In this document: positions 7,246 to 54,827 of the stretch, one piece after another | Layout of the letters: each line of letters begins with the position of its first letter | Numbering within the stretch: position 1 is the stretch's first letter | Source of the DNA: Minisyncoccia bacterium | GTDB taxonomy: Bacteria; Patescibacteriota; Minisyncoccia; Phycocordibacterales; JAACPR01 | DNA length: 54,827 bases | Direction: 5' to 3' | NCBI GenBank assembly: GCA_044375695.1 | Contig: JBILMG010000001.1 | Location: 1-54,827 of the forward strand | Position numbers and translations under genes: made by a program | The notes under the pieces: generated by a model | The model's database searches: none | What the model was told of the DNA's origin: nothing | The model's input: the letters and a program-made list of their open reading frames with translations, nothing else

Positions 7246-7317
7246 GCCAGCGTAGCTCAGGGGTAGAGCAGCTCACTCGTAACGAGCAGGTCGGAGGTTC
7301 AAATCCTCTCGCTGGCT
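7246..7317 (+). tRNA. tRNA-Thr (CGT)
   Basis: GCCAGCG TA GCTC AGGGGTA GAGC A GCTCA CT-CGT-AA CGAGC AGGTC GGAGG TTCAAAT CCTCT CGCTGGC T; positions 31-39 form an A-C mismatch; no CCA. Confidence 0.88.
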
Positions 7318-7327
7318 CAGCGCGCTT

Positions 7328-7357
7328 CGAAAACCCTCCCGTCCGGGAGGGTTTTCG
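7328..7357 (+). terminator. Terminator hairpin after tRNA-Thr
   Basis: CGAAAACCCTCCC-GTCC-GGGAGGGTTTTCG followed by TTTT. Confidence 0.75.
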
Positions 7358-7364
7358 TTTTGCT

Positions 7365-7531
7365 CGCGCTGAGCCAGCGAGAGGATTTGAAGGCCGCAGC
7401 CGACCGAGCGTAGCAAGGTCCGGCCCCGTCCGAAGGGGCCGGCGGCGAGGCGGGGTCGCGGGTACTTGGCGGATCGGCGCTCTGGCCTTCAGAAATTTGA
7501 AGAGTGCTGATCCGCTTAGTAACCCGTGACC
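7365..7531 (+). repeat. tRNA-linked structured element, tRNA-Thr-matched copy (no regenerated 3' tRNA end)
   Basis: 7365-7391 is the perfect 27-nt reverse complement of 7298-7324 (tRNA T loop to trailer). It is followed by the scaffold GGCCGCAGC...GGCGAGGCGGGGTCGCGGGTACTTGG..hairpin..CGCTTAGTAACCCGTGACC. Confidence 0.8.
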
Positions 7532-7632
7532 AAATCCCCGAAATCAAGCCTGAGGCGCCTTTTCCGTGAGGACCTAGCACCGGCCTGAGCGCGACGGCGG
7601 GGCCGAGAGCGGTGACCACCCCCACCTCGCCA

Positions 7633-14685: not shown

Positions 14686-16314
14686 ATGAAGACGCTCGCC
14701 CTGCCGCTCGCCGCCCTCGCGCTCCTCCTGTCCCTCGGCCTCGCCCGCGCGGCGGCCCCCGCCCTCTCCCTCGGCTGGTACGGCGCCGCCTGCGACGACG
14801 GCGAGGCGCAGAACCCGGGCGACCCCGCCGGCTGCCGGTACGACGCGCGCGAGCGCGCCTGCGGCGACGGCGTCGACAACGACTCCGACGAGCGCGCCGA
14901 CGGCCAGGACCCGGACTGCTGGCACGGCGACCCGGTCTGCGAGAGCGAGTCCGCGGCGAACCCCGGCGGGACCGGCGGCTGCGACGGCCTCGCGCCGGCC
15001 CACTGCGGCGACGGCCTCGACAACGACGCCGACGGCGCCTACGACTGCTCGGACATGGACTGCGACGAGTCGCCGAACTGCCGCGTCTGCGCCGCGGTGG
15101 TGGAGGTCTGCGACAACGGCGCCGACGACGACTGCGACGGCCTCGCCGACGGCGAAGACCAGGACTGCGGGTGCGCCGACGCCTGGTACAACGTCTGGGA
15201 CCCGCGCTGCGCCTGCCCGGCGACCGAGCTCGACGCCGACGGCGACTGCGCCCCCGACGCCTACTGGTGGTGGGGGACCGCCTGCGCCGACGGGAAGGAC
15301 AACGACGCGGACGGGCTGTACGACTGCGCGGACCGCGCCGACTGCGCGGGCGACGCGGCGTGCCACGGCGGCCCGGCCGCCGAGGACTGCGGGAACACCC
15401 TCGACGACGACGGCGACGGCGCGGCGGACTGCGCCGACGGCGACTGCGCGGGCGACTACTACTGCGTCACCTTCGGCAATCCGGGGAATCCGGTCAACCG
15501 GGGGAGCGTGTACAACCCGGGGAACGCGTACTCCGGCGGCACCGGCGACGCCGGCACGTCGGGCAGCGCGGGCGCGGGCGGTGCCGGCAATCTGTTCGAC
15601 GGCAGCCTGGGGAGCCGCAAGCCGGGCGGCTTGGGAGATCCGGCGACTATGGGAATTGAAAATCCTTCCCGAAACGGAAATTTGGGTGGGTACGGCCCCG
15701 AAAACACACCAGATAGCTGCCACGACGGCATCGACAACGACGGCGATTTGCAGATTGACTGCGGGCAAGACTCAAGCTGCCTCAATAACGACTGCGATGA
15801 GAGCACCTTCTGTTCGGATGGCCTCGATAACGACTGGGACGGTAAATCTGACTGTGCGGACTCGGAGTGCGAAGGGAAGGCTGCTTGCGCGGGTGACGAA
15901 GATAACTGCGTCGATCGCAAAGACAACGATGGCGACGGTTTTGCCGACTGCGCCGACTTCGACTGTTCCGGTTTAGCGAACTGCGTAGAGGAATTTTACA
16001 AGTGCGAAGACGGCATGGACAACGACGGCGACCGCCTGGTGGACTGCTGGGATCCGTCTTGCAGAGGCGATATCGCCTGCGTGGAAGGCGATGGGGATGG
16101 AAGGTTCCCCATAGACACACAAATCAACTGCGAGGACGGCAAAGATAATGACCTCGACGGCAAGATTGACTGTCGCGATCCAGGCTGTTCTGGCGCACAT
16201 GATTGCACGGAGATATTTTGCAATGACCAAAAGGACGACGACGGCGATGCCCTCACCGATTGCAACGACTCCGACTGCGCCGACGATTACTGGTGTCGAA
16301 AAAAAAACGAATAA
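14686..16314 (+). CDS. Secreted Cys/Asp-rich repeat protein (about 11 C-x-DG-x-DND-x-DG-x-x-DC-x-D-x-x-C units; MopE-like putative metal/Ca-binding motif)
   Basis: Signal peptide MKTLALPLAALALLLSLGLARA; repeats such as GLDNDADGAYDCSDMDC and RKDNDGDGFADCADFDC. Confidence 0.8.
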   Translation: MKTLALPLAALALLLSLGLARAAAPALSLGWYGAACDDGEAQNPGDPAGCRYDARERACGDGVDNDSDERADGQDPDCWHGDPVCESESAANPGGTGGCDGLAPAHCGDGLDNDADGAYDCSDMDCDESPNCRVCAAVVEVCDNGADDDCDGLADGEDQDCGCADAWYNVWDPRCACPATELDADGDCAPDAYWWWGTACADGKDNDADGLYDCADRADCAGDAACHGGPAAEDCGNTLDDDGDGAADCADGDCAGDYYCVTFGNPGNPVNRGSVYNPGNAYSGGTGDAGTSGSAGAGGAGNLFDGSLGSRKPGGLGDPATMGIENPSRNGNLGGYGPENTPDSCHDGIDNDGDLQIDCGQDSSCLNNDCDESTFCSDGLDNDWDGKSDCADSECEGKAACAGDEDNCVDRKDNDGDGFADCADFDCSGLANCVEEFYKCEDGMDNDGDRLVDCWDPSCRGDIACVEGDGDGRFPIDTQINCEDGKDNDLDGKIDCRDPGCSGAHDCTEIFCNDQKDDDGDALTDCNDSDCADDYWCRKKNE

Positions 16315-28370: not shown

Positions 28371-28865
28371 ATGCTGAGCCAAAGAGACCTAGAGCAGATT
28401 CGCCAAATCACCCGCGAGGTATCCGCGGAGGTTTCCAGAGAGGTTCTTCGGGAAGAGCTACCCAAAGCTTTCGAGATTTTCGAAATCAGAATGGACCGAA
28501 AAATGGACGCTCGCTTCGCCGCGCAGGAGCGCTGGATCACCACCCGCTTCGATCGGCTCGAGGGCGAAATCGACGGCTTGGCCCAGGCTACCGCGGCCGG
28601 ATTTGCCCGCGTGGACGAGCGCTTCGCTCAGGTGGACGAGCGCTTCGCTCAGGTGGATGAACGCTTCGATCAGGTGGATGAACGCTTCGCTCGGGTAGAT
28701 GAGCGCTTCGATCAAATGGACGAACACCTTACCCAGGTCGACGCCCGGCTGGAGCGCGTCGAATCCAGGCTGGGCGCGGCTGACGCCCTCGACCCGGATG
28801 CTCCCGACGGCGAGGCGGGGGAGGGCCCGTGGCTCCCGCCGCTTCGCCCCGCGCCCGAACGTTAA
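28371..28865 (+). CDS. Coiled-coil protein with VDERFAQ heptad repeats
   Basis: TATAAT at 28356-28361, 9 nt before the ATG; six tandem heptads. Confidence 0.65.
   Translation: MLSQRDLEQIRQITREVSAEVSREVLREELPKAFEIFEIRMDRKMDARFAAQERWITTRFDRLEGEIDGLAQATAAGFARVDERFAQVDERFAQVDERFDQVDERFARVDERFDQMDEHLTQVDARLERVESRLGAADALDPDAPDGEAGEGPWLPPLRPAPER
28611..28736 (+). repeat. 21-bp tandem repeat x6 (in-frame heptads)
   Basis: GTGGACGAGCGCTTCGCTCAG repeated, with increasing divergence toward the 3' end. Confidence 0.9.
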
Positions 28866-28992: not shown

Positions 28993-29063
28993 TGCGGGAT
29001 CGTCTAATGGTAGGACCCACGACTCTGAATCGTGTTATCTAGGTTCGAATCCTAGTCCCGCAG
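28993..29063 (+). tRNA. tRNA-Gln (CTG)
   Basis: TGCGGGA TC GTCT AATGGTA GGAC C CACGA CT-CTG-AA TCGTG TTAT CTAGG TTCGAAT CCTAG TCCCGCA G; no encoded CCA. Confidence 0.9.
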
Positions 29064-29109
29064 CAAAAACGAAAGCCTCGCCGCTAACCCGGCGAGGCTT
29101 TCGTTTTTG
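29064..29109 (+). terminator. Terminator hairpin after tRNA-Gln
   Basis: CAAAAACGAAAGCCTCGCCG-CTAACCC-GGCGAGGCTTTCGTTTTTG; the helix can extend outward into TCCCGCAG/CTGCGGGA. Confidence 0.8.
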
Positions 29110-29297
29110 CTGCGGGAAGCAACCGTGCGGGGCACGGTTGCGCCTAGGATTCGAAGGCCGCAGCGGGGTACCCGTCGCCCGGCCCTGCGGCGATGGGTCG
29201 CGAAGCGGGGTCGCGAGCACTTTGGCTTTTGGAATCCGTTCCAGAATCAGAGGATTCCAAAAGACTTAGTGACTCGTGACCGAGCCTAGTCCCGCAG
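29110..29297 (+). repeat. tRNA-linked structured element, Gln copy A
   Basis: CTGCGGGA-AGC-[AACCGTGC GGG GCACGGTT]-GCG-CCTAGGATTCGAAGGCCGCAGCG...GGGTCGCGAGCAC..hairpin..CTTAGTGACTCGTGACCGAG-CCTAGTCCCGCAG, then CCA. Confidence 0.85.
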
Positions 29298-29375
29298 CCA
29301 GCTTGAGCGAGGTTCCCATGTCCGAGGTGCCCTTGGTTCCAGCAGCAGAACCGCTGAAATCTCCTTTGTGTTACT

Positions 29376-29939
29376 ATGGTGATTATGGAAAGCGTAGGCG
29401 TGCCGGAGAGAAACTCTCTTGATTCGACGGAGGGTGTCATGACAGAAAAGGTCGGAGAAAATATCCGGACAATTCCTGAATACAAGACAAAAGGGAAGCT
29501 TTCAGAATTCGAGGAAGACAAGGTGCCGCATCCCAGGAAGATACCCGACATCCGGGAGGTGAAGCTGTGGACTCTTGCCGGGAAGGATAGCGAAGCCTTC
29601 ATCCAGAGCGTGCACAAAAAAATCCTTCGAGTTGGTAAAAAATCTCCGGTGCTCGGGATAGAGGCTGCAAATTTCTTGCTTGCGAATGCGCCAGATGAAT
29701 GGAAGGGGTCCCGTATCCTGCTCTGGGACTTCTTCAGATCAAAGGATGATTTTCCCGTACTGAAGTACCTGGAGTTCGATACCGAAAATGAGGTCTGGCT
29801 GGTGAAGAACATCACCCTTGATGTGGGTGGTCTTGCGACGCCTGGTTTGCCGGGGGCCCACAACGGGACGAACATATGGGGCGATACGTGGAAAGTTCCT
29901 TTCGTGACTGAGCCTTTTGAAGAGTCGTACGACCTGTAG
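29376..29939 (+). CDS. Cassette ORF 1, hypothetical protein
   Basis: 187-aa ORF, visibly AT-richer than the backbone. The antisense 316-aa ORF (29144-30094) is Ser-rich and spans the repeats, so I rejected it. Confidence 0.6.
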   Translation: MVIMESVGVPERNSLDSTEGVMTEKVGENIRTIPEYKTKGKLSEFEEDKVPHPRKIPDIREVKLWTLAGKDSEAFIQSVHKKILRVGKKSPVLGIEAANFLLANAPDEWKGSRILLWDFFRSKDDFPVLKYLEFDTENEVWLVKNITLDVGGLATPGLPGAHNGTNIWGDTWKVPFVTEPFEESYDL

Positions 29940-30027
29940 GAATTTTTGGCGTCCGATGTGCCTCGTTTTATTGCCAAGACGAGTGCTTGCGGGGCAACGC
30001 CCGAAACAGCTACGAGCCCGAGCTGCC

Positions 30028-30079
30028 CAGCAAAAAAGAAGCCCGGCCACCTTGGGGTGGCCGGGCTTCTTTTTTGCTG
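30028..30079 (+). terminator. Terminator hairpin preceding Gln copy B
   Basis: CAGCAAAAAAGAAGCCCGGCCAC-CTTGG-GGTGGCCGGGCTTCTTTTTTGCTG. Confidence 0.75.
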
Positions 30080-30259
30080 CGGGAAGCGAGGCAACTGCTT
30101 GCCTCGCGCCTAGGATTCGAAGGGCGCAGCGATGCCGGAGGCTTTGCGACGGCCGCGAGCCGGGGTCGCGGGTACTTAGCCGTTTGGCGGCCAGAAAAAG
30201 AAACTTCACCTTCGCCGCCAAATCGGCTTAGTAACCCGTGACCGAACCTAGTCCCGCAG
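30077..30259 (+). repeat. tRNA-linked structured element, Gln copy B
   Basis: Same architecture as copy A. The variable hairpin is GAGGCA-ACTGCT-TGCCTC, the basal helix is the GGGTAC/GTAACCC variant, and it ends CCTAGTCCCGCAG then ACA. Confidence 0.85.
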
Positions 30260-30290
30260 ACAGCTTGAGCGAGGTTCCTGTGTCCGAGGT

Positions 30291-30824
30291 ATGTTGATGC
30301 TATATAATCTCGTCATGAAAAAATTAGACAAGAAAGCGGTCTGGCTCTTCTTTATCGGCTCGCTCGGAACAGTCGTCATTCTGTTCGTGGTGCTTGCGCT
30401 CTACGCACTTATCGAATCCCAGGCCGTGAGGGAAATTATCGAGCCCGATGTCGTCCTCCCCTGGGTCACCGTTGCAGCCGTCGCGCTGGTCGTGATTTCC
30501 TACATCTGGGCTCGGCTCACGTACCAGTTTTACCGCTACAACCTGACCGACCAAGGCTTCCAAAAAGAGTACGGAATCATCTGGAAAAAGTACGTCACCA
30601 TCCCGTACTCGCGCATCCAGAACGTGGACATCTACCGCGGTCTGCTCGCGAGGATTCTCGGTCTCTCCGACCTCAACATCCAGACCGCTGGCGCCGGCGT
30701 GCCCTCTGGTTCCGCTGCTGGATTCGGCGCCGAAGGGCGGTTGCCCGGCCTGTCTCGTGCCGACGCCGAGCACGTGCGCGATGAGCTCTTGCGCCGCGCG
30801 GGCTCGAAAGGTCAAGGTCTCTAG
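30291..30824 (+). CDS. Cassette ORF 2, bPH_2 (YdbS/YdbT-like, DUF304) membrane protein
   Basis: Two TM helices, then YRYNLTDQGFQKEYGIIWKKYVTIPYSRIQNVDIYRGLLARILGLSDLNIQTAG; an alternative ATG lies at 30315. Confidence 0.7.
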   Translation: MLMLYNLVMKKLDKKAVWLFFIGSLGTVVILFVVLALYALIESQAVREIIEPDVVLPWVTVAAVALVVISYIWARLTYQFYRYNLTDQGFQKEYGIIWKKYVTIPYSRIQNVDIYRGLLARILGLSDLNIQTAGAGVPSGSAAGFGAEGRLPGLSRADAEHVRDELLRRAGSKGQGL

Positions 30825-30863
30825 GGTCCGTCGCTAATTCCGGGAAATATAGTGCCGCGCCCC

Positions 30864-30923
30864 GTGGGGTAGCCATCACCCCGCCACCAGAAAGGTTCTA
30901 ACGTCGTCCAGCGCCCGCAGCCA
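30864..30923 (+). repeat. Short variant inter-cassette element 1
   Basis: Hairpin GTGGGGT-AGCCATC-ACCCCGC followed by CACCA, then AGGTTCTAACGTCGTCCAGCGCCCGCAGCCA. Confidence 0.7.
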
Positions 30924-30983
30924 ACGTTTTTGAGAGAGGTCCGTGTGTTCGGTCCGTTTCAGGCTCCGAGTGGCTGGTATAGA

Positions 30984-31883
30984 ATGTTGCCCATGGAAAA
31001 AGTAAATCCCAGCGGGTTGATTAGGAGAGGTTTCGCCTATCTCGTCGACTTTGTCGCCCTGTTTATTTTTTGGGCTTTCGTCGCAGGAAAATCATTCCTA
31101 ATCTCGGCTAACTGGAGCACCTATGACGGAAATTGGGTGACCGATATTAATTATCAGAATCCAGGAAACGCGCTCCTGTTCCTCCTGCTGCTCGTGGTGT
31201 ACTTCGCGGTGTGCGAAGCGGTGTCCGGGCGCACGCTTGGGAAGGTCGTCCTCGGCATCCGCGTCGTCGACGTTGTGTCTGGTAATCGTCCTGGTGCCCG
31301 CGCCGCTCTGCGAAACTTTCTCAGGCCTATCGATTTGGGCCTCGGGGTAATTTTTGCGCTGCTCTCCGGAAGGAATCAGACCCTGGGAGACCGAATTGCG
31401 GGAACCGTAGTTGTCCGGAACGGCGGGGAGGGTTTTCCCGTCGCCAAGCCGCCTACGGTTGGCAGGAAATTTCTTGCCGCCCTTCTTCTGCTCGGAGCAA
31501 TTTCTGGAGCCGTTGGCGTCGCGATGGCGATTCCCGAAATCTCATCGGCCAACAGGGCGGTGCTCGAGGTGGTGGGTGCGGCTCGCGCCGCGACGGTAAG
31601 CGGAGAGTACCTCCTGGTCCACGACCGCTTTGCCACGGCCTTTCAGCGGGAGATGCCGCTCGAGCGGCTCCCGGCTCTTTTCGAAGACCAGCGAGCCGGC
31701 GAGCTCTTCCAGCTTCTCGACCTAGAAAAGCTGAAGTTTGTGCGGTGGATGTTCGCCGGCGACCAGGTGGCTGTGTACGGATTGGACGGCACATCATCCC
31801 TCGTCTTTGTTTTCCAGAAGGAAGGCGATCCGGCCACCTGGAAAGTTCTCTCGATGGTTATCGATAACCCCACGGTTCAGTAG
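30984..31883 (+). CDS. Cassette ORF 3, RDD family membrane protein with a C-terminal extension
   Basis: RRGFAYLVDFV and GRTLGKVVLGIRVVD motifs; the start is uncertain (30984 or 30993; the track gives 30930). Confidence 0.7.
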   Translation: MLPMEKVNPSGLIRRGFAYLVDFVALFIFWAFVAGKSFLISANWSTYDGNWVTDINYQNPGNALLFLLLLVVYFAVCEAVSGRTLGKVVLGIRVVDVVSGNRPGARAALRNFLRPIDLGLGVIFALLSGRNQTLGDRIAGTVVVRNGGEGFPVAKPPTVGRKFLAALLLLGAISGAVGVAMAIPEISSANRAVLEVVGAARAATVSGEYLLVHDRFATAFQREMPLERLPALFEDQRAGELFQLLDLEKLKFVRWMFAGDQVAVYGLDGTSSLVFVFQKEGDPATWKVLSMVIDNPTVQ

Positions 31884-31888
31884 CTCGC

Positions 31889-31949
31889 GGTGGGGTAACC
31901 CTCACCCCGCCATCGCCCAGGTTCGAACGTCGTCCAGCGCCCGCAGCCA
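31889..31949 (+). repeat. Short variant inter-cassette element 2
   Basis: Hairpin GGTGGGGT-AACCCTC-ACCCCGCC, then CAGGTTCGAACGTCGTCCAGCGCCCGCAGCCA; collinear with 30864-30923. Confidence 0.7.
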
Positions 31950-32019
31950 GCTTGAGCGCGCCACGACCGTGTCCGAGGTGCCCCCCCCCAATGGAGGCGG
32001 CACGTGGTAGAATTTATCT

Positions 32020-32577
32020 ATGCAAACTGAAAAGTCTTTGTTATTCAGAATGTTTTCTGGCCGCCTCAACCGTCGTGGCCTACTGGTTGGCGTCGTCTGT
32101 TTGTGGCTTCTCGAGTACGCCGCGACGATCCCTACCTACATCATGCTCTTTACGTCTGGATCTCTTGGCGATTTGGCGACCGCTTCCGCTAGGGACGTAG
32201 ACCTCGCCATTGCCTCAAATTTTTTCAGCTTTTCAACTCCTTCTTATATCTACTGGGCGCTGTCTCTCGTCGTTCTGATTTCGGGTATCGGGGTGTTTGT
32301 CAGGCGTCTGCACGATATGGGTAGGGGGCCTGTCTTGGCAATTATCCTTGCCGTGACCACCGCGTACCCTACTGTCTTCGGGGTCTTTGCGTACAATTTT
32401 TCCCCCGACGTCCTAAAAATTCATGCCGGGTCAGTCTTCTTTACCGATAGCGTGATTGGAATTTTAAATTTAGGCCTGCTCCTGTTCCTCTTGCTGTCTC
32501 GCGGCGTTCCTGGCCCGAATCGATACGGTGAAGTCCCGCCGGAGAAGCAAAAAGTAGCAGAGGTGCTGCTCGGCTAA
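32020..32577 (+). CDS. Cassette ORF 4, DUF805 family membrane protein
   Basis: N-terminal FSGRLNRRG and VRRLHDMGRGP, typical of DUF805 (YhaH/YhaI-like). Confidence 0.7.
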   Translation: MQTEKSLLFRMFSGRLNRRGLLVGVVCLWLLEYAATIPTYIMLFTSGSLGDLATASARDVDLAIASNFFSFSTPSYIYWALSLVVLISGIGVFVRRLHDMGRGPVLAIILAVTTAYPTVFGVFAYNFSPDVLKIHAGSVFFTDSVIGILNLGLLLFLLLSRGVPGPNRYGEVPPEKQKVAEVLLG

Positions 32578-32659
32578 TTGCCGTCCGAGGTGCCTCCGTC
32601 TGTCGTCTGATGGATTGATTGCGGGGCAAAGGCTGAACCAGCCACGAGACCGAGGTGTC

Positions 32660-32711
32660 CAGCAAAAAGAATTGCCGGCCACCCCAAGGTGGCCGGCAAT
32701 TCTTTTTGCTG
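32660..32711 (+). terminator. Terminator hairpin preceding Gln copy C
   Basis: CAGCAAAAAGAATTGCCGGCCACC-CCAA-GGTGGCCGGCAATTCTTTTTGCTG. Confidence 0.75.
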
Positions 32712-32898
32712 CGGGAAGCGAACGTGGTGAACCCACGTTCGCGCCTAGGATTCGAAGGCCGCAGCGGGGTACCCGTCGCCCGGCCCTGCGGCGATGGGTC
32801 GCGAGGCGGGGTCGCGAGCACTTAGCCTTTCGGAATCCGTTCCAGAGTCAGAGGATTCCAAAAGACTTAGTGACTCGTGACCGAGCCTAGTCCCGCAA
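32709..32898 (+). repeat. tRNA-linked structured element, Gln copy C
   Basis: Near-identical to copy A except for the variable hairpin GAACGTGG-TGAAC-CCACGTTC; it ends CCTAGTCCCGCAA then CCA. Confidence 0.85.
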
Positions 32899-33124
32899 CC
32901 AACTCGTGCCAGGTTGTCGCGCTCGAGACGCGTCGGTGCCAGATAACGGGTATTCTCTTTTCGTATCTAAATGGGTGGGCGCTTACCAAAGACGGTAAGG
33001 TGTGCTAACGCACCATAACTTTTTGAAGTGCGAGAGACGCGGCGCTCTGGTTTTTAAAAAAATCACCAAACGGACTAGCTCAGCCTTAGCCGGCGGCGGC
33101 CCTCCTGGGCCTGCCCGACAAAAT

Positions 33125-33152
33125 ATTGACATAATATCTATATATTATATAA
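33125..33152 (+). promoter_or_regulatory. Consensus sigma70 promoter
   Basis: TTGACA, 16 nt, TATAAT in a very AT-rich patch. Confidence 0.7.
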
Positions 33153-33186
33153 TATTAATCGTCGTAGACCCTTCAAAAATTTGAAT

Positions 33187-33239
33187 TTGTCGCGGCGCTC
33201 AGAAGCTCGGCTGACTTAGGCTTTTGAGCGCCGCGACAA
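33187..33239 (+). promoter_or_regulatory. 15-bp perfect stem hairpin in the 5' UTR of the 33289 gene
   Basis: TTGTCGCGGCGCTCA-23 nt-TGAGCGCCGCGACAA, with no T-tract on the plus strand. Confidence 0.5.
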
Positions 33240-33288
33240 AAATCGCCGCATCAAAATTAGGCAAACAATTCACAACGAAGACGCAATT

Positions 33289-43278: not shown

Positions 43279-44196
43279 ATGAAAAAAATCCTTATCGCGG
43301 TTGTCCTGCTCGCGGCCGTCGGCGCTGGGGTCTATTTCTTCCTTAACCGCAGCGCCGCTCCGGCGGCTGTTGCCCCGGCCGCGCCCGAGCCGGTAGCTAC
43401 ATCTACCGTTCCCGCGGCCACCACGACCGTCGCCGTTAACGAAAAAGAGACGGTCATCGGCAAGTCTGCCGGCGGCCGCGACATTGTTGCCTACCACTAC
43501 GGCGCATCTTCGGCCTCGACGACCGCGGAGCTGCTCCTCGTCGGCGGCATTCACGGCGGCTACAGCTGGAACACCGCCGCCGTCGCCTACGAGGCTATGG
43601 CCTACCTCGACGAGACCTCGGCCGCGATTCCCGAGGGCACGCGCGTCACGGTGGTGCCGGTCCTGAACCCGGACGGCCTCTCTAAGGTCGTCACCGATAT
43701 TTCTCCGTTCTCGAAGGACGACGTTAAGGCTTCCGAGGCGGTCCGCGTCGCCTCTCGCTTCAACGGCAACAACGTCGACCTCAACCGCAACTTCGACTGC
43801 GACTGGCAGCAGAAGGGTACCTGGCAGAGCAAGACCGTGGACGGCGGCGAGGCTGCCTTCTCGGAGCCGGAGAGCCAGGCGATTAAGTCTTACGTCGAGG
43901 CTCACGACATTGCCGGCGCCATTGTCTGGTACAGCTCGGCTGGCGGCGTCTTCGCCTCGAACTGCCACGACGGCGTTCTGCCCGAGACAGCTTCGCTCGT
44001 GAAGACCTACTCGGCTGCGTCTGGCTACGCCGCGCACGAAGAGTTCGACTTCTACGAGGTGACCGGCGACCTCACCAACTGGCTCGCCAAGCGCGGCACC
44101 CCGGCGATCAGCGTGCTCCTCACCACCCACGAGGATACCGAGTGGTCCAAGAACCAGAAGGGCATCGCTGCGGTCCTCGCTAGCTTCGCCGAGTAA
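43279..44196 (+). CDS. M14-like metallocarboxypeptidase family protein
   Basis: GGIHGGYSWN, NPDG, DLNRNFDCDW; TM anchor. Confidence 0.6.
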   Translation: MKKILIAVVLLAAVGAGVYFFLNRSAAPAAVAPAAPEPVATSTVPAATTTVAVNEKETVIGKSAGGRDIVAYHYGASSASTTAELLLVGGIHGGYSWNTAAVAYEAMAYLDETSAAIPEGTRVTVVPVLNPDGLSKVVTDISPFSKDDVKASEAVRVASRFNGNNVDLNRNFDCDWQQKGTWQSKTVDGGEAAFSEPESQAIKSYVEAHDIAGAIVWYSSAGGVFASNCHDGVLPETASLVKTYSAASGYAAHEEFDFYEVTGDLTNWLAKRGTPAISVLLTTHEDTEWSKNQKGIAAVLASFAE

Positions 44197-45095
44197 TGCC
44201 GCCTCGCCCGCGCTTCCGCTGGCGGATTGCGCTCGCCGTCTTCGCGCTGCTGGCGCTCGGCTTGCTCGCCCTCTGGCTACGTGAGCCCGCGGCTGCGCCG
44301 GCCGAACCCGTGGCGCCGCCGGCTCCGGTTTTGCCCGTACCGGCCATGCCCGCTCGCGCCACCGTCGGCACTTCGGTCGAGGGGCGCACGATCGAGGCGT
44401 ACACCTACGGCAGCGGCGAAACCCGGCTGCTCTTCGTCGGCGGCATTCACGGCGGCTACGAGTGGAACAGCGTCGTCCTCGCCTACCAGATGATGGACTA
44501 CCTCGAGGCTAACCCAGCCGCCATTCCGGGCAACCTGTCCGTGACGATCGTGCCGAACGCGAATCCGGACGGCGTTTTCAAGGTGGTGGGGAAGGAGGGG
44601 CGCTTCACGGCCGCCGACGTTCCCGCGGGAACCGATCAGTCGCTCGGTCGCTTCAACGCGCGCGGCGTCGACCTCAACCGCAACTTCGACTGCCGCTGGC
44701 AGCCGGAGAGCACCTGGCGCAGCAAGATTGTCAGCGCCGGAACCGCGCCGTTCTCGGAACCGGAAGCGGCCGCGCTGCGCGACCTCGTGGCTAAGGAAAA
44801 GCCGGTCGCCGCCGTCTTCTGGCACAGCCAGGCGAACGCGGTGTACGCCTCGGCGTGCGAGGCGGGCGTCTTGCCCGAGACCCGCGCGATTATGTCGGCC
44901 TACGCCGCGGCCGCGGGCTACTCGGCCGTCGAATCCTTCGACGCCTACCCGGTGACCGGCGCCGCCGAAGACTGGCTCGCGTCAATCGGCGTGCCGGCGA
45001 TCACCGTCGAATTTTCCTCGCACGAGAGCCTCGACTGGGAGAAGAACCTGGCCGGAGTGCGCGCGCTCCTCGCTCGCTACGCGGCCGACGTCTAG
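44196..45095 (+). CDS. M14-like metallocarboxypeptidase family protein (tandem paralogue)
   Basis: GGIHGGYEWN, NPDG, DLNRNFDCRW; TAATG overlap with the upstream paralogue. Confidence 0.6.
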   Translation: MPPRPRFRWRIALAVFALLALGLLALWLREPAAAPAEPVAPPAPVLPVPAMPARATVGTSVEGRTIEAYTYGSGETRLLFVGGIHGGYEWNSVVLAYQMMDYLEANPAAIPGNLSVTIVPNANPDGVFKVVGKEGRFTAADVPAGTDQSLGRFNARGVDLNRNFDCRWQPESTWRSKIVSAGTAPFSEPEAAALRDLVAKEKPVAAVFWHSQANAVYASACEAGVLPETRAIMSAYAAAAGYSAVESFDAYPVTGAAEDWLASIGVPAITVEFSSHESLDWEKNLAGVRALLARYAADV

Positions 45096-54538: not shown

Positions 54539-54827
54539 ATGCGCCACCGCTCAGCCGCCCTCCTGTCCGCCGCCGCGCTCGCCCTCCTCGTGTCTCTTGG
54601 CCTCGCTCGCGCCGCGTCTTCCGCCCTCTCGTTTGCCTCTCTGCTGGGCCTGGGCGAGGAGCGCTGCGAAGGTCGCGCCTCGTGGGAAGCTCGCAACCCA
54701 GGGGCAGCTGGAAAGTGCCTGCCCCCCGTGCCCGAGATCGAATGCTTCGACGCTATCGACAACGATTCGGACGAGATGGCCGACTACCAGGACCCGGATT
54801 GCAACGAGTATTACGGCAACGGTGACG
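54539..54827 (+). CDS. Partial (5' end) paralogue of the Cys/Asp-rich repeat protein
   Basis: ATG at 54539; signal peptide ...LLVSLGLARAA resembles that of 14686; first repeat CFDAIDNDSDEMADYQDPDC; it runs off the window. Confidence 0.65.
   Translation, partial: MRHRSAALLSAAALALLVSLGLARAASSALSFASLLGLGEERCEGRASWEARNPGAAGKCLPPVPEIECFDAIDNDSDEMADYQDPDCNEYYGNGD

Follow-up and report, generated by a model that had tools for sequence, protein, structure and literature searches.

Structured repeats with tRNA-derived arms behind tRNA genes of Patescibacteria: a candidate family of small mobile elements

The repeat array behind tRNA-Gln

We analyzed a 54,827-nucleotide stretch of DNA from a Minisyncoccia bacterium (assembly GCA_044375695.1, contig JBILMG010000001.1, positions 1 to 54,827; hereafter the window), in which three copies of a structured element of about 190 nt lie 3′ of a tRNA-Gln(CTG) gene, interleaved with four AT-richer open reading frames (ORFs). 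The initial annotation, made from the sequence alone, had described three such copies, each with its own hairpin and with a tRNA-derived start and end, and coordinates, repeat search and alignment confirmed this description. The attachment point is tRNA-Gln(CTG), and the repeated target, called S below, is formed by its last 13-20 nt. The strain occurs in JGI metagenomes 3300044616, 3300034096 and 3300059473, among others. The array was reproduced in six independent metagenome contigs at 99.8-100% identity and is therefore not an assembly artefact; these six retrieved contigs showed no strain-level cassette variation, which at such identity is uninformative. The features of the array are as follows.

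28993-29064, + strand: tRNA-Gln(CTG) gene (ARAGORN; Rfam tRNA, 61.9 bits)
29056-29117, + strand: hairpin T_A, a perfect 28-bp inverted repeat, terminator-like, with A-run and T-run (repeat search)
29110-29297, + strand, with CCA to 29300: copy A (covariance model R1, 93.3 bits; match 29146-29289)
29110-29117, + strand: anti-acceptor part of copy A
29118-29142, + strand: auxiliary AGC..GCG hairpin of copy A
29143-29155, + strand: anti T-stem/T-loop part of copy A
29156-29280, + strand: three-way-junction core of copy A (stems P2 and P3)
29281-29297, + strand: sense copy of the tRNA tail in copy A
29298-29300, + strand: displaced CCA after copy A
29298-29331, + strand: flank module F (CCA GCTTGAGCG N GTCCGAGGTGCC)
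29376-29939, + strand: cargo ORF1, 187 aa, no family match (GC 0.51; -10-like TGTTACTAT by eye)
29951-30030, + strand: second copy of the 12-mer (GTCCGATGTGCC) and a degenerate tRNA-tail-like stretch of ~65 nt ending ..CCGAGCTGCCCAG
30028-30079, + strand: hairpin T_B, a perfect 24-bp inverted repeat followed by a T-run (repeat search)
30077-30259, + strand, with ACA to 30262: copy B (R1, 90.4 bits; match 30112-30251)
30291-30824, + strand: cargo ORF2, bPH_2/YdbS-like membrane protein (putative promoter TGCTATATAAT)
30857-30923, + strand: short variant 1, hairpin and degenerate tRNA tail ..CGCCCGCAGCCA
30993-31883, + strand: cargo ORF3, RDD-family membrane protein (putative promoter TGGTATAGAAT)
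31883-31982, + strand: short variant 2 (..CGCCCGCAGCCA), then module F with the exact 12-mer at 31971-31982
32020-32577, + strand: cargo ORF4, DUF805 membrane protein (putative promoter TGGTAGAAT; GC 0.52)
32583-32662, + strand: exact 12-mer GTCCGAGGTGCC and a degenerate tRNA-tail-like stretch, paralogue of 29951-30030
32660-32711, + strand: hairpin T_C, a perfect 24-bp inverted repeat followed by a T-run (repeat search)
32709-32898, + strand, with CCA to 32901: copy C (R1, 95.8 bits; match 32747-32890)

Copies A and C were 93% identical over 182 nt, and an 18-mer, GCGCCTAGGATTCGAAGG, was common to A, B and C (three exact occurrences vs 0.1 expected). Copy B differed from copy A at the tips of the auxiliary hairpin, P2 and P3, through compensatory changes. 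Every copy began with CTGCGGGA, the AGC..GCG hairpin and CCTAGGATTCGAA, that is, with the reverse complement of tRNA-Gln positions 54-73 split by a hairpin, and ended with CCTAGTCCCGCA(G/A). Compared to shuffled sequences, the copies folded with z = -6.9 and -8.0. Directly 3′ of A and C (CCCGCAACCA) and of both short variants (30914, 31940) we found CCCGCAGCCA, with the CCA that had been reported at these four places, and the tRNA-Gln gene's own end reads CCCGCAGCAA.

The left arm of T_A takes in the 3′ end of tRNA-Gln and its right arm enters the 5′ arm of copy A; the loop of T_C is the reverse complement of the loop of T_B. Module F, which is the native sequence 3′ of tRNA-Gln in relatives, recurred after A, B and short variant 2; the occurrences behind short variant 1 and C are degenerate. 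The stretches 5′ of B and C were paralogous (74% over 144 nt), with a homologue of 29951-30030 present in a relative (locus L128, see below), and ORF1 and ORF4 were each flanked on both sides by the 12-mer. The two short variants had been taken for variants of the element. Neither folded significantly (z = -0.4 and -0.75), and short variant 1 lacked the three-way-junction core and gave no match to R1. Together with the stretches before B and C they were rejected as folded elements (z = -0.4 to -1.3), and all are read here as decayed copies of the tRNA tail plus native flank.

Pfam bore out the assignments of the four ORFs (one without family, bPH_2, RDD and DUF805), and none of the cargo proteins matched an enzymatic family. 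The ORFs had been described as clearly AT-richer than their flanks, which held for overall GC content (0.51-0.58 vs 0.64-0.66) and, in ORF1, ORF3 and ORF4, for GC at third codon positions (GC3; 0.59-0.66, below all other called genes at 0.69-0.93), but not for the GC3 of ORF2, which at 0.75 fell inside the range of the other genes. As read from the sequence, an extended -10 element lies 5′ of ORF2, ORF3 and ORF4 and a weaker -10-like sequence 5′ of ORF1. No integrase, transposase or reverse transcriptase (RT) domain was detected in the 50 proteins of the 55-kb window, in agreement with the initial annotation, and none of these proteins matched Y1_Tnp.

Distribution, arms and structure of the element family

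The core of the element follows the pattern ..GCCGCAG..hairpin..CGAGGCGGG GTCGCGRGYACTTAG..hairpin..CTTAGTRACYCGTGAC. A scan with this pattern over one genome per species returned at least 111 loci, nearly all in Patescibacteria, and the matching genomes listed included Yonath-, Kaiser-, Nomura-, Campbell- and Niyogibacteria, Paceibacteria and Minisyncoccia (many metagenome-assembled genomes, MAGs, bear generic taxon labels). As these loci comprise many tRNAs, tmRNA and protein genes, the idea that the repeat is a punctuation mark peculiar to the cassettes of the tRNA-Gln array was abandoned. The viral contigs of IMG/VR contained no match to the core pattern, and a phage origin was rejected. 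No Rfam 15 family matched the element at gathering or permissive (E ≤ 10) thresholds: in the window only tRNAs passed gathering and E ≤ 10 gave only spurious miRNA/leader matches on hairpins, and at 18 further loci only tRNA, tmRNA and LOOT passed, none overlapping an element. The LOOT RNA (RF03000, 53 bits; L028:850-971) is unrelated to the element. A narrow full-text literature search found no published description. Within what could be checked, the family is undescribed, and the initial annotation had likewise recognized no known element.

Covariance model R1 detected 146 non-overlapping copies in 100 loci, 129 of which had enough flank for the upstream gene to be scored. This neighbor was a same-strand tRNA, of any specificity, for 94 of the 129 copies (73%) and another copy for 15, and several other copies follow tmRNA (L006, L017, L031), rplL (L040) or ftsZ (L003/L086). 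The element always had the orientation of its upstream gene, and in every case its 5′ arm was an inverted copy of the 3′ end of that gene and the sequence after the core a direct copy. An inverted copy (at least 9 nt of the last 22 nt) lay within 250 nt downstream of 90 of 156 tRNAs, vs 4 upstream, and a direct copy of the tRNA tail downstream of 71 of 156, vs 0 upstream. The junctions were sharp and of two classes: in the first the inverted copy is bounded at T54 and the direct copy runs from C56, and in the second, at the extreme 3′ end, the last ~5 nt and the trailer only are involved. The arms replicate gene plus trailer and not a mature tRNA ending in CCA. An ORF is absent from most copies. 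Many tRNAs without an R1 match still showed a palindrome, an inverted T-loop and another type of core, so the superfamily is wider than R1.

Several observations concern particular targets and subfamilies. At the tmRNA genes (L006, L017, L031) the 5′ arm was the reverse complement of the T-arm/acceptor end of tmRNA. Behind protein-coding genes (L040, rplL; L003/L086, ftsZ; L008/L023) the inverted copy covered 30-40 nt at the 3′ end of the coding sequence, and the terminator of the gene sat at the palindrome center. At least two further subfamilies share the architecture and the G.U position described below and have different cores (GGGTCG[G/T]G..CCTGAC, and GAACCGAGCCCCG..GGCCGATGG..GAGTGGC); these divergent units (L059:420-595; the first units of L053 and L066; L049 tRNA-Leu) interleave with canonical units in tandem arrays.

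No protein family was enriched within 3.5 kb of 114 copies, where ORF clustering gave only scattered housekeeping families. The co-located recombinase, RT or nuclease for which the initial annotation had proposed to look was accordingly rejected.

In the window, elements or parts of elements were also found behind three other tRNA genes.

7246-7546, + strand: tRNA-Thr(CGT) gene (7246-7318) and element unit (R1, 81.1 bits; match 7382-7539)
1022-1525, - strand: tRNA-Asp gene (1451-1525) and element unit (R1, 99 bits and 12.8 bits; match 1245-1376)
1-120, - strand: tRNA-Met gene (44-120), hairpin and TGGTCCC, cut by the window edge

The model thus recovered the five long copies counted in the initial annotation (1245-1376 on the - strand, 7382-7539 on the + strand, 29146-29289, 30112-30251 and 32747-32890). 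The tRNA-Thr(CGT) unit consists of hairpin, inverted copy, core and truncated sense copy (CAAATCC), and its inverted copy is a 22-nt exact reverse complement of the tRNA-Thr(CGT) 3′ end (7370-7391). The tRNA-Asp unit has a hairpin, anti-tRNA-Asp arms with an auxiliary hairpin between them (TGCGCGAGCGA[hairpin]GGTGGGACTCGAA) and the core, and is followed by two further partial copies, to about 1022. Here a 72-nt segment comprising the hairpin right arm, the anti-tRNA-Asp arm, the auxiliary hairpin and the start of the core was present twice (1051-1122 and 1351-1422; 99% identical, 300 nt apart), which indicates a very recent partial re-insertion or duplication. The TGGTCCC behind tRNA-Met is the beginning of an inverted copy of the tRNA-Met 3′ end, and the orthologous tRNA-Met in CAZNOT (L032) has a full element. 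The tRNA-Thr(GGT) gene of the window has none.

The structure was derived from an alignment of 61 copies, with pairing statistics calculated on 150 model-aligned copies. It is a three-way junction of P1, formed by the gene-derived arms, P2, with a conserved AG/GAG internal loop, and P3, whose lower half is conserved and whose tip is variable, often GAG-minihairpin-CGAA. Cells of the alignment were paired in 94% of cases (70% in shuffles, 32% in slid controls) and 27 of 28 pairs showed compensatory change, evidence which suits folded single-stranded DNA (ssDNA) and structured RNA equally well. The fourth pair of P3 was G.U in 140 of 149 copies, A-U in two and never G-C, and this G.U was kept in subfamilies outside the selection made by the search pattern (L053, the first L066 unit and the middle L059 unit). 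Elsewhere G.U exceeded A.C (73 vs 45), and in the P2 tips 42 GU were seen on the + strand vs 18 on the - strand. Given this bias and the conserved G.U, we take the active strand to be the tRNA-sense strand. The minus strand was rejected as the active one: antisense matches to the covariance model scored 25 bits vs 95, and the conserved G.U would turn into A.C.

Triloops made up 39% of the hairpin tips, with 37 C(GNA)G tips vs 6 GNRA and 1 UNCG, and GCGAAGC tips numbered 28 vs 1 for GCGAAAGC. The d(GCGAAGC) and GNA triloops are classic hyperstable DNA mini-hairpins, and the tip types hint at a folded ssDNA form on the tRNA-sense strand. The enrichment of GCGAAGC/C(GNA)G tips was striking in, for example, L018, L020 and L024; the window copies use other loops, and a CTGC loop was very frequent in the auxiliary AGC..GCG hairpin.

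Insertion at tRNA tails and the variable tRNA-Gln interval

Two relatives (L121 and L124), with a DPRP neighbor 88-90% identical and the gene order MarR ... tRNA-Gln ... SOUL-DPRP-TspO, have empty sites behind tRNA-Gln, reading ..CCTAGTCCCGCAG-CCA-GCTTGAGCG..GTCCGAG(A/G)(T/A)GCC, with T_A and the element both missing. This is the empty junction at CCTAGTCCCGCAG that the initial annotation had proposed to seek. The tRNA-Gln orthologues of L121, L124 and L128 all encode CCA and then GCTTGAGCG. Judged from these empty sites, copy A is an insertion of ~235 bp with a 13-14 bp target duplication, CCTAGTCCCGCAG(C), and the sense copy, CCA and GCTTGAGCG that follow it are the displaced original 3′ end and flank of tRNA-Gln. 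A displaced gene end that encoded CCA accounts for the "extra" CCA, and the notion of a mature-tRNA-like RNA end was given up.

At tRNA-Lys, L066 carried one additional unit, of another subfamily, compared to the orthologous loci L038 and L060. In one MAG (CAZMPG) a unit was present twice, 98.5% identical over 130 nt and in the context GGGCGGAC^AAGGAAACA both times, at the true end of tRNA-Lys(TTT) and at the duplicated tail behind tRNA-Lys(CTT). The nearest neighbor of a copy was in the same genome for 40 of 104 copies (2.5% by chance); copies grouped by genome, not by tRNA, and the most similar pairs stood at isoacceptors with identical tails. Between the window and a relative at 62% identity (L126), the tRNA-Thr(CGT) elements differed in hairpin and auxiliary hairpin, in P2 and P3 and in how far the direct copy extends, which indicates turnover and not simple inheritance. 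Units also occurred in tandem arrays in which different subfamilies were mixed.

The interval from tRNA-Gln to SOUL was hypervariable, with wholly different genes among syntenic relatives: four small genes and a 124-aa ORF in the window, a TPR protein in L124, and the remnant of a diversity-generating retroelement (DGR; target-like gene, template repeat, bAvd and truncated RT) in L121. A metagenome scan for the predicted empty junction identified L128, which reads tRNA-Gln-CCA-F, promoter and 158-aa ORF, 12-mer, degenerate tail and hairpin, and after the hairpin an exact inverted tRNA-Gln tail, core, direct tail-CCA-F′, promoter and DUF3850 ORF (putative promoters TGCTAGAAT and GATGATAGAAT). 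This cargo unit has the same layout as ORF1 to copy B and ORF4 to copy C in the window. Common to both loci is the order S - F - promoter and ORF - hairpin - RC(S) - core - S′ - F - next ORF, where RC(S) is the reverse complement of S. Outside the window's lineage a single candidate for a cargo unit (L064) was inspected and found unconvincing.

Further observations concern the surroundings of these loci. The degenerate DGR of L121 (7497-9170) lies immediately 3′ of tRNA-Gln; its target-like gene (218 aa, ending ..YRFLLVRN) is matched by a template-like repeat (..NGNYRFLLVRH), and bAvd and an N-terminal fragment (53 aa) of an RT are also present. An AT-rich island of the window (33126-33240) contains a perfect sigma-70 consensus promoter (TTGACA-16-TATAAT) with a 21-bp GC-rich hairpin after it (33186-33240); this arrangement is kept in L121 (7283-7420), and it stands 5′ of the 124-aa ORF in the window and of the DGR target gene in L121. 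Just 5′ of tRNA-Gln, a 164-aa ORF with weak PHROG matches of unknown function includes six tandem 21-nt repeats (28590-28757), which encode a reiterated, coiled-coil-like VDERFAQ heptad. Farther away in the window, a 542-aa protein without a Pfam match (14686-16314) has ~20 degenerate Asp/Cys-rich repeats (CxDGxDNDxDGxxDCxD-like), a repeat of similar kind begins at the right edge (54716-54802), and two neighboring paralogous Peptidase_M14 genes (43279-45095) are 74-76% identical over stretches of DNA, a pair also present in the syntenic L121.

Interpretation and likeness to known systems

On balance, the copies are probably members of a large family of non-autonomous mobile elements, small and without genes, that inhabit Patescibacteria (mostly genomes of Paceibacteria/Parcubacteria type) and integrate at the 3′ ends of tRNA genes, tmRNA genes and, on occasion, other genes. 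Family membership, a structure backed by covariation, target-derived arms, an insertion seen against empty sites, tandem re-insertion, clustering by genome and units with cargo are the observations behind this reading. What we infer in the following model is an intermediate that is circular or folded, the kind of recombinase, and an active form of ssDNA or RNA.

In this model an integrated unit would consist of S, a perfect hairpin/terminator (or a cargo gene and hairpin), RC(S), often split by AGC..GCG, the ~130-nt core, and a second S with the original flank. Campbell-type recombination would be the most economical mechanism, in that a single crossover within S by a small circle ordered S - hairpin/cargo - RC(S) - core would give the observed layout. 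Pairing of S with RC(S) in the circle would produce a compact branched rod displaying a duplex replica of the target, and the circle or folded form would recombine with the identical S in the gene. Integration would restore an intact tRNA, add a new terminator and duplicate S, and a later unit could enter the duplicated S to build tandem arrays. The enzyme, not being encoded beside the elements, would act in trans. The expected empty junction is GGTTCGAATCCTAGTCCCGCAGCCAGCTTGAGCGAGGTTCCCATG and the expected circle or tandem junction ...CTCGTGACCGAGCCTAGTCCCGCAG|CAAAAACGAAAGCC. At tRNA-Gln, units would carry promoter-bearing single genes, with the tRNA tail comparable to attI and RC(S)-core-S to attC.

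A more specific proposal, tentative and in our view rather doubtful, is that Paceibacteria possess an integron-like cassette-recombination system on tRNA genes. In it, the folded strand RC(S)-three-way junction-S would present a duplex replica of a tRNA 3′ end, a trans-acting recombinase would join it to that tRNA gene and so insert empty terminator units behind most tRNAs or promoter-bearing genes at hot spots such as tRNA-Gln, and the arms would set a reprogrammable target. The integron-like cassette platform seeded at a tRNA, as first suggested for this locus, is upheld by the hot spot, the layout of L128 and the attC-like build; the lack of IntI and of R/L boxes and the promoter-bearing cassettes set it apart from an integron proper.

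Several points weigh against the mobile-element model. No recombinase, circle junction or excision product was seen, the six contigs retrieved showed no polymorphism, and cargo-carrying units have so far come only from the window's own lineage. A simple Campbell crossover leaves the matching of RC(S) to a new, unrelated tRNA unexplained, and does not account for the usually poorer preservation of the distal direct copy relative to the inverted one. This suggests that selection maintains the S:RC(S) hairpin, perhaps as an extended terminator, or that a copying step such as fold-back synthesis operates outside the model. The perfect, fast-evolving palindromes, with the mirrored differences and flipped loop of B vs C, fit such a copying step. 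Hairpins and cores have separate histories, A and C sharing the core and not the hairpin, and B and C the hairpin type. Finally, the phylum-wide conservation of the core, the conserved G.U and the excess of GU over AC would fit an RNA with a cellular function equally well.

Such a functional non-coding RNA, transcribed with or after each tRNA and spreading only secondarily, is unlikely but has to be taken seriously, and is not exclusive of mobility. It would be a mimic of the tRNA tail, made up of an acceptor/T-stem minihelix and a conserved three-way junction. Its role could lie in tRNA 3′ processing, termination or quality control, e.g., as an RNase P/RNase Z entry site, or it could offer the 3′ half of the tRNA an alternative pairing partner when transcription reads through. 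In its favor, many lineages share the core sequence and the junction purines, the wobble lies on the tRNA-sense strand (G.U, never G-C; GU 73 vs AC 45; P2 tips 42 vs 18), element and upstream gene always point the same way, P1 rebuilds the stack of acceptor and T-stem with a 3′ discriminator, and the element is kept behind tRNA-Thr(CGT) in relatives at 62% protein identity. However, a perfect terminator hairpin stands between tRNA and element, immediately upstream of the latter, with no space left for a promoter, and the search for a promoter-like site of the element came up empty. Decay or truncation of P1's distal arm is frequent (the window's Thr and Asp copies are examples), and the arms copy gene and trailer rather than mature tRNA. 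In addition, relatives without the element at tRNA-Gln do well and tRNA-Thr(GGT) is also without it, copies stand behind rplL and ftsZ too, the tips are DNA-type triloops and not GNRA or UNCG, and differing subfamilies share tandem arrays.

That the element is a guide-RNA scaffold, in the manner of bridge RNA, omega RNA or seekRNA, whose 5′ arm directs a trans-encoded recombinase or nuclease to tRNA 3′ ends, seems improbable to us. Its attraction lies in a 5′ segment (5-27 nt) whose complementarity to the neighboring target is exact and which precedes a conserved scaffold of ~130 nt, in two P1 arms that complement both strands of the target duplex, and in a choice of targets, including tmRNA, rplL and ftsZ, that looks programmable. 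Set against this, no IS110, IscB, TnpB or Cas-like gene was found in the window or in the 3.5 kb around 114 copies, and Rfam gave no match to HEARO or IS605-type RNAs. The "guide" moreover matches a site that is already occupied, is base-paired in P1 or the long palindrome, and has a terminator upstream of it.

We give a very slim chance to an origin without dedicated machinery, by template switching (fold-back) of replication at terminator palindromes and the T-loop TTCGAA, with the core spread by ectopic gene conversion. The 24-28 bp palindromes are perfect even between the diverged paralogues B and C, with mirrored differences and a flipped loop, class one junctions fall exactly within the self-complementary T-loop, and the two CAZMPG copies have homologous flanks on both sides, as gene conversion requires. 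Yet a 130-nt core with covariation and conserved junctions across genomes is left unexplained, the empty sites of L121/L124 have no hairpin, so that hairpin and element come in together, some copies stand at genes other than tRNAs that lack TTCGAA, and cargo-carrying units exist. Recent segmental duplication confined to the tRNA-Gln locus, which the 93% identity of A and C, the 74% identity over 144 nt before B and C, the repeated module F and the lack of strain-level variation might have suggested, and which the initial annotation had itself raised, is refuted by the same core behind the tRNA-Thr and tRNA-Asp genes of the window, with arms specific to each, and behind many tRNAs in at least 111 loci of other genomes.

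Other identities were rejected individually. ARAGORN found no tmRNA, permuted tmRNA or extra tRNA at the elements, and the likeness of GGAUUCGAA to the 5′ region of tmRNA is a consequence of the palindromic T-loop. Hammerhead and other small ribozymes had no Rfam match, and the junctions do not seem to fit the hammerhead consensus. A primer-binding-site arm directed at mature tRNA is contradicted by an arm that copies gene and trailer, without a CCA complement where the gene has no CCA. A 5′ leader or riboswitch of the downstream ORFs was dismissed, as most copies have no co-oriented downstream ORF and the -10-like sequences of the window ORFs sit between element and start codon.

If the mobile-element reading is true, a new kind of mobile or recombination element would exist in the least-understood major bacterial radiation, holding the 3′ side of a large share of the tRNA genes in genomes of ~1 Mb and supplying the terminators of those tRNAs. 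Gene cassettes would be gained at tRNA hot spots without any element-encoded enzyme. With arms copied from or matched to the target, the enzyme may read a substrate of structure plus sequence and take its specificity from base pairing, which would be of interest for programmable DNA insertion. If it were instead a cellular RNA, it would rank among the most abundant uncatalogued structured RNAs of Patescibacteria and bear on the termination and processing of tRNA transcripts. For annotation, the element would explain why pseudo-tRNA fragments, long palindromes and breaks in assemblies recur behind tRNA genes in MAGs of the candidate phyla radiation.

Compared to tRNA-like RNAs (the tmRNA domain, mascRNA, YrlA/Y RNA and viral examples), P1 likewise reproduces the acceptor/T-stem stack, the discriminator and sometimes CCA. 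However, this mimicry is a by-product of the duplicated gene tail: the element has no intact T-loop and no analogue of the D or anticodon arm, its CCA is a displaced genomic CCA, and it has no Rfam match.

With REP/REPIN-RAYT sequences (REP, repetitive extragenic palindrome; RAYT, REP-associated tyrosine transposase), MITEs (miniature inverted-repeat transposable elements), Correia and enterobacterial repetitive intergenic consensus (ERIC) sequences and the palindrome-associated transposable elements (PATEs) of IS200/IS605, it has in common that these are short, gene-less, structured intergenic repeats that multiply in the genome, often serve as terminators and depend on an enzyme in trans. 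Unlike in these groups, the arms are copied from the target and the element lies strictly at gene 3′ ends, co-oriented with the gene. Unlike MITEs, it has no constant terminal inverted repeats, and its duplications range from ~3-5 nt to more than 20 nt instead of being fixed, and unlike REP/REPIN its core is a 130-nt three-way junction found across many genomes and not a species-specific palindrome of 20-40 nt. It also differs from IS200/IS605 PATEs and omega/reRNA in a target that is variable and duplicated and in the lack of such an Rfam match; TnpA/TnpB was neither present in the window nor enriched near the 114 copies.

The islands and prophages of tRNA and tmRNA genes, which use tyrosine integrases, share with the element the target, the 3′ part of the gene, with a crossover that falls either in the T-loop or at the far 3′ end, and Williams is said to have distinguished in 2002 T-loop and 3′-end "sublocations" of tRNA/tmRNA integration. 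As in such islands, the tRNA is regenerated and direct tail repeats (CCTAGTCCCGCAG(C), duplicated) flank the insert, with tandem accretion and a hypervariable hot spot. Unlike them, the element has no integrase in cis, its unit is ~230 bp, it carries the tail once more in inverted form, together with a conserved structured core, and the same core is found at dozens of different tRNAs in one genome. Integrative mobile elements exploiting Xer (IMEX), such as CTXphi, resemble it in inverted target copies that rebuild a duplex site when folded, in an enzyme acting in trans and in tandem arrays: the folded ssDNA attP of CTXphi mimics dif and is served by host XerCD in trans. The element differs in targeting a tRNA tail and not dif, and in having no phage genes.

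Integrons, in which IntI recombines attI with attC on folded single strands, likewise array single-gene units at one attachment point, and the attC-ended unit resembles ours in an imperfect-palindromic fold whose arms are RC(core) and core, in cassette boundaries that are direct repeats of the core, in the existence of ORF-less units and in a folded ssDNA form, which is hinted at here. Tandem single-gene cassettes with folded palindromic ends were found at 29065-32901 of the window and in L128. Unlike in integrons, no IntI was found nearby, with no recombinase in the window or enriched near the 114 copies, and R′′/L′′/L′/R′ boxes (RYYYAAC/GTTRRRY) are absent, the arms being host-gene-specific tRNA tails (CTGCGGGA..CCTAGG / CCTAGTCCCGCAG). 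A stretch of 13-20+ nt from a tRNA 3′ end serves as attachment core and varies from one host gene to the next, and the center is a conserved 130-nt three-way junction and not a variable loop. The cassettes bear promoters, as opposed to the mostly promoterless cassettes expressed from Pc, and most units are empty and scattered behind many tRNAs. By analogy, the closest concepts would be attC and the folded attP of CTXphi, and the closest in target choice the tRNA-integrating islands. Since the defining properties of all the compared systems were lacking, we treat it as a new kind of element, with an integron-like working anchored on tRNA tails.

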